Shown here: in pieces, positions 13,895-16,303 of the stretch
How the letters are laid out: every line of letters starts with the position of its first letter
How positions within the stretch are numbered: the stretch's first letter is position 1
Virus record (IMG/VR): IMGVR_UViG_2585427766_000001
DNA from: a virus
Taxonomy: Duplodnaviria; Heunggongvirae; Uroviricota; Caudoviricetes
Length of the DNA: 34,738 bases
Strand: one strand, 5' to 3'
Position numbers and translations under genes: made by a program
Notes under the pieces: model-generated
Databases searched by the model: none
Told to the model about the DNA's origin: nothing
The model's input: the letters and a program-made list of their open reading frames with translations, nothing else

Positions 13895-14215
13895 AAAATA
13901 GTTGTGGAATTCCAAAAAGCCGATTAGCCTGATATCTGTTGAAAACAGTTCATCACGAAGAGGCTTCCGCAAGGGGGCCTTTTTTATTGCCCCATTCTGG
14001 GGAAAAGTTAATAAAACAGGGCTTTCGCTGCGAAAAAACGCTATGCAGTTTTTGCCCTTTTTTATGCACCTTTTATTCACTCGAATTTCGTCATTCTGGA
14101 CCACTTAAGTTGATTAAATAGGCCTTTCATCGCAAATCTATTGCGAGCGGGGATCGTGTGGTTCCTATAACGTACATTATGTTAAATAACTTCCTTTTTT
14201 AACAAATTTAACAAG

Positions 14216-14238
14216 GTTCGCTATGGCGAACTTTTTTT
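14216..14238 (+). terminator. Intrinsic terminator (tR'-like) upstream of the lysis genes
   Basis: GGTTCGC-TATG-GCGAAC followed by TTTTTTT; sits between the Q-like gene and the holin. Confidence 0.7.
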
Positions 14239-14339
14239 GTATTCAGGGCCCACCGAAGGACGGCTCATAACCCAATCCTACGGGCGTATACGCAGGGCCC
14301 GCCTTTCAACAACACCCCGTAATGGCGGAGGTGGGAAGT

Positions 14340-14681
14340 ATGAAAATGCACAATGCTCCTCATTCCTGGCCTGACTTACTGGAACTCTTACAAAGTTGGT
14401 GGCGTGGAGATACGCCGTTGGGCGCAGTGGTTATGTCAATTGTTATGGCTGGCTTGCGCATTGCCTATTTTGGCGGTGGCGGCGGCTGGAAACGAAAAAC
14501 GCTTGAGATTTTGCTCTGTGGTGCTCTGACGCTGACCTTTGCATCCGCTCTTGAGTATGTTGGATGGCCTAAATCTCTTTCTGTTGCCATTGGTGGTGGT
14601 GTTGGGCTGATCGGTGTCGATGCTATTCGTGGGGCTGCAATGCGAGTAATCGGTAACAAGTTTGGTGGCTCTAAGGAGTAA
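14340..14681 (+). CDS. S: Class I holin with lambda S-like Met-Lys-Met dual start
   Basis: GGAGG lies about 9 nt upstream of ATG 14340; the product begins MKM (ATG AAA ATG). Three hydrophobic segments and a charged C-terminus. The track ORF starts further up at 14322. Confidence 0.75.
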   Translation: MKMHNAPHSWPDLLELLQSWWRGDTPLGAVVMSIVMAGLRIAYFGGGGGWKRKTLEILLCGALTLTFASALEYVGWPKSLSVAIGGGVGLIGVDAIRGAAMRVIGNKFGGSKE

Positions 14682-14684
14682 TTC

Positions 14685-15161
14685 ATGCAGACACTAAATT
14701 CCCAACGCAAAGCTTTCCTGGATATGGTGGCATGGTCAGAAGGAACGGATAACGGGCGACAACCGACACGTAATCACGGTTATGACGTTATCGTCGGAGG
14801 TGAGTTGTTCACTGATTACTCCGATCACCCTCGCAAACTTGTCACGCTAAACCCGAAGCTTAAATCAACAGCCGCAGGCCGGTATCAGCTTCTTTCACGC
14901 TGGTGGGATGCCTACCGCAAGCAGCTTGGCCTGAAAGATTTTTCGCCAGAAAGTCAGGACGCTGTGGCGCTGCAGCAGATTAAAGAGCGTGGCGCTTTAC
15001 CGATGATTGACCGTGGCGATATTCGTCAGGCAATCGACCGTTGCAGCAATATCTGGGCGTCGTTACCTGGTGCAGGTTACGGTCAGTATGAACATAAAAT
15101 CGGTGACCTGATTTCCAGGTTTAAAGATGCTGGTGGGGTGGTAAATGAAGCTGACTTATAA
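14685..15161 (+). CDS. R: Endolysin, lambda R-type lytic transglycosylase
   Basis: 158 aa, near-identical over most of its length to lambda R as I recall it (QRKAFLDMVAWSEGTDNGRQ..RNHGYDVIVGGELFTDYSDHPRKLVTLNPKLKST..GRYQLLSRWWDAYRKQLGLKDFSP); catalytic Glu within AWSEGTD. Confidence 0.85.
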   Translation: MQTLNSQRKAFLDMVAWSEGTDNGRQPTRNHGYDVIVGGELFTDYSDHPRKLVTLNPKLKSTAAGRYQLLSRWWDAYRKQLGLKDFSPESQDAVALQQIKERGALPMIDRGDIRQAIDRCSNIWASLPGAGYGQYEHKIGDLISRFKDAGGVVNEADL

Positions 15162-15669
15162 GATTGTCATCGCGGCATTTTTCTTCTCTGCCTTTGGGGC
15201 GCTCGTCTGGTCTGCAAACCATTACCACAGCAAGTATCAGGCAGAAAAGTTGCGGGCTGATAAAGCGGAAGGTGAAGCTGAATATCAAGGGAAAGTGATA
15301 GCTAATCAGGCATTAAACTTCAATCGTTTTAACCAGATAGCAGAAAACGCAAGCCGATTAAATTCTCTGGTCGACATCGGTCACGAGAAGACAGTCATCA
15401 AATACCGTGAGGTTCTGCTCCGTGAAAAGAACTGTGATTTCCCTGTTCCTGTTGATATTGCTGTCGGGTTGCTCAACTACGCGAACCGTTTACGCGCCAG
15501 CGCATTGCACGCCGATTCCGGGGACATTGACTCAGCCGGTGATCGTGCCACTACCACCAGAACGTTGACATATTGCCAGGCTGTTCTGTGGATTAACCCA
15601 CTGTTGGCAGCCATCGAGAAGGCGAATAACCAATTGGCTGGTGTCCGACAAATAGAACAGTCCCGGTAA
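15145..15669 (+). CDS. Rz: Rz-like inner-membrane spanin (i-spanin)
   Basis: 174 aa with N-terminal transmembrane helix IVIAAFFFSAFGALVW followed by WSANHYH (compare lambda Rz AVNHY); start overlaps the endolysin stop. Confidence 0.75.
   Translation: MKLTYKIVIAAFFFSAFGALVWSANHYHSKYQAEKLRADKAEGEAEYQGKVIANQALNFNRFNQIAENASRLNSLVDIGHEKTVIKYREVLLREKNCDFPVPVDIAVGLLNYANRLRASALHADSGDIDSAGDRATTTRTLTYCQAVLWINPLLAAIEKANNQLAGVRQIEQSR
15422..15568 (+). CDS. Rz1: Rz1-like outer-membrane lipoprotein spanin, embedded in the +1 frame of Rz
   Basis: Hand translation, absent from the ORF track: GAGG about 9 nt upstream of GTG 15422, product MKRTVISLFLLILLSGCSTTRTVYAPAHCTPIPGTLTQPVIVPLPPER, stop TGA 15566-15568. 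Lipobox LLSGC; proline-rich mature part. Indexing verified against the Rz translation. Confidence 0.7.
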   Translation: MKRTVISLFLLILLSGCSTTRTVYAPAHCTPIPGTLTQPVIVPLPPER

Positions 15670-15730: not shown

Positions 15731-16303
15731 ATGACTAAGAAGCTGAAAGCAAAACACGAGGTGTTTTGTCGCGAGTTTCTTGTCGATCTGAATGCTACAC
15801 AAGCAGCTATTCGCGCAGGCTACGTCTCCAGGCGAGCACATGTTACGGGGGCTGAACTATACGGTAAACCTGAGATACGCGCCCGTATTAACGAGCTAAA
15901 GCAGGAGCGTATTGATCAACTGGGCATTGATGCTAATTATGTGCTGATGCGACTGGTTGAGATCGACAGGCTCGATGTGGCTGACATCCTGGAGGACGAT
16001 TTAAGTATTAAGCCTCTGTCTGCGTGGCCGGAATCGTGGCGTCGGTACCTGAGTGGATTTAACCTCGCTGAAATGTTTGAGGGGCGAGGAGATGACAGAG
16101 AAATGGTCGGGATCCTTAAAAAGATTAAGTGGCCTGATAAGGTTAAAAACCTTGAGTTGCTTGGGCGTCATGTTTCTGTTCAGGCGTTTAAAGACAACGT
16201 CAAAAATGAAGTGACTGGCGCTGATGGAGGACCCGTCAGAACAGAAATTACCAACTTAACGCCGGAGCAGGCTGCAGAGGCGTATAGAAAAATGATGGGC
16301 TAA
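15731..16303 (+). CDS. Terminase small subunit (Terminase_2/P27-like)
   Basis: 190 aa; N-terminal [24 protein letters not shown]; immediately upstream of the large terminase. Confidence 0.7.

Follow-up and report, generated by a model that had tools for sequence, protein, structure and literature searches.

A putative Rz1-type o-spanin gene embedded in the Rz gene of a tailed phage and its relation to overlapped LysC-type spanins

The subject of this analysis is a 34,738-nucleotide (nt) stretch of phage DNA, IMG/VR virus record IMGVR_UViG_2585427766_000001 (Caudoviricetes), which is referred to at its full length as the window. An open reading frame (ORF) at positions 15422–15568, lying inside the Rz-type gene, very probably encodes the o-spanin (Rz1 type) of a two-component spanin with Rz as its partner, the pair belonging to the embedded HK225/mEp237/ZF40 family, which derives by a frame shift from overlapped spanins of the LysB/LysC type or is conceivably their parent. 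It is also considered likely that the embedded HK225-type and the overlapped LysB/LysC-type spanins form one lineage, in which a frame-shifting indel (net 13 nt, between PLPP and LTY) moved an amphipathic helix of ~35 amino acids (aa) between the two subunits, in either direction, with both states selected in sister clades. The unexpected part is this frame switch among the relatives and not the window gene alone. The features on which the first of these readings depends are as follows.

15422–15568, + strand: Rz1-type o-spanin gene, 48 codons plus TGA (15566–15568), wholly within Rz, +1 frame
15409–15412, + strand: Shine-Dalgarno (SD)-like GAGG for Rz1, 9 nt 5' of GTG 15422, read from the sequence
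15422–15469, + strand: lipoprotein signal peptide VKRTVISLFLLILLSG, with K/R in the n-region and an uncharged core
15470–15565, + strand: mature o-spanin, 32 aa, with the predicted acylated Cys, a TRTVY motif and a proline-rich tail to PLPPER
15145–15669, + strand: gene for the Rz-type i-spanin of 174 aa, matching PHROG 214 'Rz-like spanin' (E 1.6e-58, positions 7–176 of 176)

The ORF lies in the +1 frame relative to Rz, as (15422−15145) mod 3 = 1. Its product reads VKRTVISLFLLILLSG as the signal peptide followed by CSTTRTVYAPAHCTPIPGTLTQPVIVPLPPER as the mature part, with the lipobox L-S-G-C at 15461–15472 and the codon for Cys17 at 15470–15472. The mature part holds seven Pro and a second Cys (C29, encoded at 15506–15508). 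A first-pass annotation of the window had claimed a 48-codon +1 ORF inside Rz with a GTG preceded by GAGG, a signal peptide, a lipobox, a proline-rich part and a Cys, all of which were recovered where it had claimed them; its remark that the ORF fell below the length cutoff of the ORF list is plausible, given 48–53 aa against a cutoff of 60 aa. The product shows the features looked for in an o-spanin, namely a lipoprotein signal with a lipobox of the form [LVI][ASTVI][GAS]C, no Asp at +2, a partner i-spanin gene in the lysis cassette and a periplasmic Cys. The residue at +2 after the lipobox Cys is Ser, with Ser or Thr found in the listed homologues, and a lipoprotein without Asp at this position goes to the outer membrane. 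The product also matched PHROG 456 'Rz-like spanin' (E 8.5e-7). The partner Rz has an N-terminal transmembrane segment and a helical periplasmic domain, with Cys97 at 15433–15435 and Cys144 at 15574–15576.

The frequency with which such an ORF arises by chance was estimated by recoding Rz synonymously 20,000 times, with codons drawn from the window's own usage, and searching each product for ORFs that combined a start codon and a charged n-region with an uncharged core and a lipobox, and that continued for at least another 20 codons. A lipoprotein-like embedded ORF was obtained in 56 of the 20,000 recodings (0.28%). When the same criteria were applied to the six frames of the 34.7-kb window, ORF 15422–15568 was the sole match.

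Conservation of the second frame was studied in 160 further loci obtained from scans of IMG/VR and GTDB genomes (Enterobacterales), using as query an Rz alignment of family members only. The Rz motif could be located in 165 loci, of which 163 kept the +1 ORF with its lipobox and the other two were N-masked artefacts, and the lipobox Cys was conserved in 163/163 of the loci retaining the ORF. Related loci ranging from Escherichia to Providencia and Pectobacterium gave 98 distinct mature Rz1 sequences with the consensus CSxTRTVYVPAQCTPIPxxLTQPxxxPLPPxx, and of the 110 distinct sequence variants listed, all except three had a mature length of 32 aa. When the 48-aa product was used as a tblastn query, the frame was likewise found open in phages HK225, mEp237, Flotzy, LLS, PHB10, Hafnia yong2, Serratia BZS1 and OS31, Providencia PSTCR3 and Pectobacterium ZF40, among others, with identities of 61–71% for Rz1 among these phages compared to 37–64% for Rz itself. 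It should be noted that two of the collected loci are decayed. One of these (L168, Kluyvera genomosp. 3, CP022114.1) carries a 1-nt frameshift in the overlap, by which Rz becomes fused to the Rz1 frame, and the other (L180, Enterobacter hormaechei, CP169086.1) an insertion sequence (IS) element directly after the TYC codons of Rz.

Wobble positions along Rz were then analysed in 134 unique Rz genes aligned by codon, giving the following values of third-position entropy and of the synonymous-difference fraction.

Rz codons 41–92, upstream of the overlap: third-position entropy 1.47 bits; synonymous-difference fraction 0.48
Rz codons 93–108, Rz1 signal peptide: 0.63 bits; 0.19
Rz codons 109–121, N part of mature Rz1: 0.34 bits; 0.14
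Rz codons 122–141, C part of mature Rz1: 0.46 bits; 0.10
Rz codons 143–174, downstream helix: 1.39 bits; 0.55

The limits of wobble suppression coincide with the GTG (codon 93) and the Rz1 stop (codon 141), with freedom regained at codon 142. Codons 122–141 show the periodicity of the Rz1 frame, with position 1 of the Rz codons the most variable (1.30 bits), and therefore selection in this segment acts chiefly on Rz1, with Rz tolerating a variable linker. The amino-acid entropy of Rz is 1.83 bits across these codons versus 0.81 in the helix. The Rz1 ORF, its ribosome-binding site, its lipobox and the fixed 32-aa mature length are thus under purifying selection in the second frame.

The comparative data also favour GTG 15422 as the start codon, since a start codon and SD motif are conserved at this place and the suppression of Rz wobble begins exactly there. 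The start codon stands at position −16, corresponding to GTG 15422, in 91 of 111 distinct contexts, 79 of these 91 having an SD-like motif, and the remaining 20 contexts have TTG or ATG at −24, eight codons farther upstream. Among the 134 unique homologues, Rz codons 87–89 (TAC CGG GAG, containing the SD) are constrained at the wobble position while the spacer codons 90–92 are free, and codon 93 is CGT followed by G, making GTG, in 97 of the 134 sequences. The program-made ORF list opens the same frame at an earlier GTG (15407–15568, 53 aa), a form that also appears in GenBank as BAI31869.1. This start was rejected as it is not conserved, with relatives having GGG, and as it overlaps the SD. 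The mature lipoprotein is identical whichever of the two starts is used. The Rz1 start was also considered as a site of regulatory RNA structure, a reading that was rejected, with the initiation region found not to be unusual (z = −0.28), and an Rfam search of the window gave no match.

By analogy with lambda, the Rz1 precursor would be exported, lipid-modified at Cys17 and cleaved from its signal peptide by signal peptidase II, and the presence of Ser and not Asp at +2 would lead to sorting to the outer membrane. The proline-rich C-terminal part would bind the periplasmic end of Rz to give a complex spanning the periplasm through the murein. Once the holin has fired and the endolysin has removed the murein, such complexes would fuse the inner and outer membranes in the last step of lysis. 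Rz C97 and C144 and Rz1 C29, which are conserved in nearly all family members, probably form intermolecular disulfides with a stabilising role, as in lambda. The lambda spanin mechanism, including export, acylation, homotypic disulfides and the merging of the inner membrane with the outer one, is summarised in the survey of Kongari et al. (2018; PMC6139136), where a requirement for a periplasmic Cys for intermolecular disulfides is noted as reported for lambda and T4.

The Rz/Rz1 pair can be assigned to a known family. HK225, ZF40 and mEp237 are listed as an embedded family for both i-spanins and o-spanins in the SpaninDataBase, in which a family is defined by identity of 40% or more across 40% or more of the length (Kongari et al., 2018; PMC6139136). 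Under this rule the window Rz, over 80% of its length (residues 36–174), shared 64% identity with HK225 Rz, and Rz1 was 70.8% identical over 100% (48 residues) to Rz1 of both HK225 and mEp237. The window pair shares with the HK225 family the embedded +1 layout, a mature lipoprotein of 32 aa, the positions of the Cys residues and the LTYCQAVLW helix at the C-terminus of Rz. It differs in that the first ~39 codons of Rz, including the membrane anchor, are SfV/SfIV-like in their DNA and unlike HK225, and in that the mature part of Rz1 reads VYAPAHC compared to VYVPAQC and ends in PLPPER. The surroundings differ as well, with the spanins of HK225, mEp237 and LLS placed behind other holins and behind lysozymes or a signal-arrest-release (SAR) endolysin, whereas those of the window follow a lambda-family holin and a transglycosylase of the lambda R type.

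The Rz1 of the window is therefore not new, having already been catalogued as an ordinary embedded o-spanin. An identical 53-aa product exists in GenBank as 'putative lipoprotein Rz1 precursor' (BAI31869.1, E. coli O103:H2 12009) and also as KRR57707.1. The homologous pair of phage LLS is gp55/gp56, with gp56 annotated as an o-spanin of the same 48-codon extent, and the homologue in Serratia phages is annotated as 'lipoprotein Rz1 precursor'. The family was matched by at least 595 IMG/VR stretches, and this Rz is present in 124 of 5,426 complete RefSeq E. coli genomes. In the 25 RefSeq records listed (e.g. NZ_CP027388.1, 5132969–5133493), the Prokaryotic Genome Annotation Pipeline (PGAP) gives Rz as 'hypothetical protein' and no feature in the Rz1 frame. 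Rz1 is also unannotated in the four 99.4%-identical phages vB_EcoM-606R2, -689R2, -611R5 and -683R1 (ON470579/582/588/593). A +1-frame ORF with a lipobox that ends at the LTYCQ motif may serve as a simple rule by which to recover the gene across prophages of Enterobacterales. Two records from other hosts, Stenotrophomonas phage BUCT708 (L013) and Elizabethkingia phage EKP1 (L017), also carry HK225-family spanins (Rz 52% and Rz1 61–66% identical), and either the module occurs in unexpected hosts or these host assignments are questionable. Clustering at 90% identity places the 53-aa precursor in a group of three, one of them a 766-aa bird Arf-GAP protein (UniRef100_A0A8C0V0H0), evidently a clustering artefact.

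The pair is also related to the lineage of P2 LysB/LysC, Mu and SfV, and it is here that the frame switch comes into view. The features concerned are as follows.

15508–15558, + strand: variable linker of Rz, residues 122–138, HADSGDIDSAGDRATTT, opposite the conserved proline-rich part of Rz1
15559–15666, + strand: C-terminal helix of Rz, residues 139–174, TLTYCQAVLWINPLLAAIEKANNQLAGVRQIEQSR, a homologue of what is the C-terminal half in LysC-type o-spanins
15560–15570, + strand: frame-switch junction, where the Rz1 stop TGA (15566–15568) overlaps the Rz codons TTG ACA that open LTYC

The Pfam LysC profile (PF23793, the P2 LysC o-spanin family, 69 positions) matched Rz1 at its positions 1–33 (16.6 bits), and its positions 31–68 were matched by the last 38 residues of Rz (136–173). 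A read-through chimera, made by joining Rz1 1–48 to Rz 140–174, matched LysC positions 1–68 with 41.9 bits (cutoff 27) and an E value of 9e-11. Rz1 is therefore best described as a split relative of the LysC family, corresponding to its N-terminal half and not to a full member, since the missing half is found in the Rz tail and the chimera scores above the cutoff. DNA alignment showed that overlapped relatives have 8 + 5 = 13 extra nt between the PLPP and VLW codons, which therefore amounts to a net shift of one frame.

The spanins of SfIV, a phage closely related to the window in S and R, are overlapped, with an Rz of 130 aa that covers only positions 7–131 of 176 of PHROG 214 and an Rz1 that continues through PLTYAGSLDLNVSLLSALGQCNLDKAGIRRIE. 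A second overlapped clade consists of 16 Providencia-type prophage loci (L176, L177 and L181–L194, with the spanins of L176 at 1477–2014), in which the i-spanin ends in ...ELRSRAMRANSSNAN (125 aa) and the o-spanin reads CSSTQTNYVPAQCVPIPATLTNLVIPPLPPDSDGKTLSPEASVLWNKLLLAAIEKANEQLDAIREIE.... The o-spanin of L176 is a full member of the LysC family by Pfam (36.2 bits). BLAST comparisons of this locus with the embedded pairs and with SfV gave the following identities.

Window Rz1 vs N-terminal part of the L176 o-spanin: 62.5%, E 2e-13
Window Rz 139–174 vs C-terminal part of the L176 o-spanin: 58% over 36 aa, E 2e-10
Window Rz 12–127 vs L176 i-spanin: 35%, E 1.5e-19
PSTCR3 Rz (embedded) vs L176 i-spanin: 54%, E 2e-50
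L176 o-spanin vs SfV Rz1: 41% over 81 aa, E 2e-14

In its i-spanin sequence this overlapped clade comes nearest to the Providencia members with embedded genes (54% to PSTCR3). Its long o-spanin ORF is open in 13 unique nucleotide sequences, with a third-position excess in the o-spanin frame, and on these grounds its overlapped state can be taken as real. The pairs of P2 (LysB/LysC), Mu, SfV/SfIV/SfII and the Providencia-type clade are thus homologues of the window pair, but overlapped rather than embedded. Their i-spanin is ~50 codons shorter (125–130 aa), their o-spanin has 74–91 aa in its mature form and runs through the helix, and the helix belongs covalently to the outer-membrane subunit, whereas in the window pair it is part of the inner-membrane one. 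The same helix-coding DNA would accordingly supply the C-terminus of the o-spanin in one clade and that of the i-spanin in the other.

Both arrangements appear to be kept under selection, and the position of the chain break within a complex that spans the periplasm would therefore be movable. The helix probably keeps its place at the mid-periplasmic junction in both forms, with just the chain break moving. In the embedded form the proline-rich end of Rz1 would bind the helix once carried by its own ancestor, and the helix would be tethered to the rest of Rz by the variable linker. With a movable break, the helix would be expected at one and the same place in both formats, in contact with the Rz segment GLLNYANRLRASA and the proline-rich segment. 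An interface that is intermolecular in one clade would then be intramolecular in the other, and the relatives would offer a natural experiment, with the same helix on either subunit, through which the Rz–Rz1 interface and the origin of the embedded gene become testable.

The frame-switch relation is well supported at the sequence level and appears to be unreported. In the survey of Kongari et al. (PMC6139136) no family mixed embedded with overlapped or separated genes, and 'parallel, unrelated pathways' were favoured; if correct, the relation described here would document an embedded–overlapped transition of which the 2018 survey found none. A literature search, with most subscription journals outside its reach, found no later report of an embedded–overlapped link. 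A tblastn search of a 2.3-Gb phage collection with the 42-aa Rz tail gave only family members as significant matches. Matches in a Yersinia myophage at E = 1 fell in an unannotated overlapped o-spanin ending ASIRQIEQSR, which lends support without being significant by itself. A hidden Markov model (HMM) of family Rz tails was also run against six-frame ORFs of all loci, with Rz1 of SfIV/SfV as the best matches from outside the family (E 0.04–0.07), and it was the Pfam LysC profile and the Providencia-type clade that proved decisive. It was also observed that in Yersinia phage vB_YenM_29.18 (L196, OM046621.1) an overlapped o-spanin at ~1150–1420 (...LLTSCGSTQIKYVQVP...ASIRQIEQSRIESK) is unannotated, with the holin of this record mislabelled as 'lysozyme R', the endolysin as 'endopeptidase Rz' and the i-spanin as 'Rz1 lytic protein'.

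Several points weigh against the reading of the ORF as an o-spanin with an origin in such a switch. The lipobox call comes from a rule-based reading together with a match to the Pfam lipid-attachment site LPAM_1 that is weak (13.6–17.7 bits) and under the cutoff of 20, and the role of Rz1 in outer-membrane disruption and its binding to Rz are carried over from lambda. No experimental paper on the expression, lipidation or lysis phenotype of the family was found in the literature searched. Rz1 alone scores under the LysC gathering score (16.6 vs 27 bits), and a single-sequence AlphaFold2 model of Rz was poor (predicted local distance difference test score, pLDDT, 53.7), giving a rough map of helices at most. 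As regards the direction of the switch, neighbour-joining (NJ) trees of the i-spanin partition and of the o-spanin plus helix partition conflict, pointing to recombination or to a switch that happened more than once. The outgroups P2, Mu and SfV, all of which are overlapped, favour the overlapped state as the ancestral one.

The origin of the spanin pair was also considered against that of the rest of the lysis cassette, the upstream genes of which are as follows.

14340–14681 (from ATG 14322 in the ORF list), + strand: holin gene of the lambda S family, PF05106 96.7 bits, TIGR01594 135.5 bits
14685–15161, + strand: endolysin gene of the lambda R type, 88% identity to lambda R over 158 aa, PHROG 90 (E 2e-63)

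The first-pass annotation had described the cassette as essentially lambda-derived, with a near-lambda R endolysin and a dual-start holin, in a phage whose virion is otherwise not of lambda type. The description of the endolysin agrees with the 88% identity over 158 aa. The dual start is present as M-K-M at 14340/14346, and a virion unlike that of lambda is consistent with the baseplate J and DUF3383 annotations in the 99.4%-identical phage vB_EcoM-689R2, which are presumably marks of a contractile tail. Derivation from lambda holds for the architecture and for R, but not for S, Rz and Rz1. The identity of S to lambda S is 24% over 79 aa. The alignment of Rz/Rz1 to lambda that had been proposed bore out the shared embedded +1 layout, but gave an identity of 24% over 82 aa for Rz and of 23% over a partial length for Rz1. 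The Pfam families Phage_lysis (PF03245) and Rz1 (PF06085) were unmatched by the window Rz/Rz1 at E<=1, with lambda Rz (183.2 bits, PF03245) and lambda Rz1 (72.2 bits, PF06085) as positive controls.

That the whole S-R-Rz-Rz1 cassette is a diverged copy from lambda, with Rz1 an orthologue of lambda Rz1, is consequently very unlikely. The likeness on which such an origin draws is real, as in both phages the o-spanin gene closes an S-R-Rz cassette, is fully embedded in the +1 frame and has a lipobox and a proline-rich mature part (~22–25% Pro), the 2+1 Cys layout is shared (Rz C97/C144 here and C99/C152 in lambda, with Rz1 C29 in both), R is 88% identical and the holin is of the lambda S family with an MKM dual start. 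Against it stand, besides the low identities over partial lengths and the unmatched lambda Pfam families, the tiling of Rz1 and the Rz C-terminus along Pfam LysC instead, and the closest relatives, which are of the HK225/mEp237 type and lie beside unrelated holins and endolysins. The mature Rz1 of lambda also has 40 aa compared to 32 here and its Rz 153 aa compared to 174, and only the window Rz ends in a helix that is o-spanin-derived in the relatives. The similarity of the DNA to SfV-type cassettes, moreover, stops inside Rz, with 88–89% similarity to SfV/SfIV/SfII spanning S, R and approximately the first 39 Rz codons and then ending. The cassette is therefore better seen as a mosaic of lambda architecture and lambda-type R with a non-lambda spanin module, since S and R are SfV-like and the spanin pair is of the HK225 type and stands beside other holins and endolysins in its relatives. 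A mosaic joint was noted at ~15250–15261, just past the membrane anchor of Rz, where an SfV-type front meets an HK225-type periplasmic domain plus Rz1.

It is also highly improbable that the Rz1 ORF is a decayed remnant, that is, the front half of a LysC-type o-spanin cut by a frameshift in a phage whose spanin is defective, even though Rz1 covers just the N-terminal half of the LysC profile and isolated loci do carry disabling lesions, namely the frameshift of L168 and the IS insertion of L180 described above. A clade of considerable size (at least 595 matching stretches in IMG/VR, 124 complete genomes of E. coli) has the shifted arrangement as its standard state, isolated phages carry it too, including HK225, mEp237, LLS, ZF40 and the vB_EcoM series, and purifying selection is seen on Rz1, on the position of its stop and on the helix as read in the frame of Rz. 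A functional embedded o-spanin remains the preferred reading.

A third alternative is that a programmed −1 frameshift at the end of Rz1 also yields a full-length LysC-like o-spanin (Rz1 plus helix) beside the short form. The helix does lie in the −1 frame relative to Rz1, directly past its last codons, and the fusion would make a complete LysC domain. No slippery heptamer of the form X XXY YYZ is present, however, in CCA CTA CCA CCA GAA CGT TGA or in the family consensus, and programmed frameshifting at the Rz1 stop was rejected on this ground. The overlapped clade obtains its fusion through the fixed 13-nt difference and not by recoding, and RNA structure is not unusual in the Rz1 initiation region (z = −0.28, with the folding covering the start region only). 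This alternative is accordingly regarded as extremely unlikely.

The idea that the ORF is an untranslated chance frame, of a kind suggested by the frequency of Pro/Leu/Cys-rich alternative frames, by its short length, GTG start and omission by PGAP and by the annotators of the closest phages, and by the ~0.3% of recodings that yield a similar ORF, is so improbable as to be negligible, given that 98 distinct sequences retain the ORF, its lipobox and the mature length of 32 aa, that Rz wobble is frozen exactly within the ORF with the periodicity switching to the Rz1 frame, and that the SD and start footprint is conserved.

The late block of the window runs on the + strand in the order holin, endolysin, Rz and terminase, with the terminase genes located as follows.

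15731–16303, + strand: small terminase
From 16306, + strand: large terminase

The start region of the holin gene (14322–14350) reads ATG GCG GAG GTG GGA AGT ATG AAA ATG, in which the M-K-M dual start (ATG 14340 and ATG 14346) follows an SD-like GGAGGTG and resembles S107/S105 of lambda. The closest phage record gives the holin as much shorter (249 nt). A terminator-like hairpin with a 9-bp stem followed by a T-run was found at 14213–14243, ~100 nt upstream of the holin gene, in a position resembling that of lambda tR' in the late leader, and a related phage has a Q antiterminator gene 5' of its holin gene.

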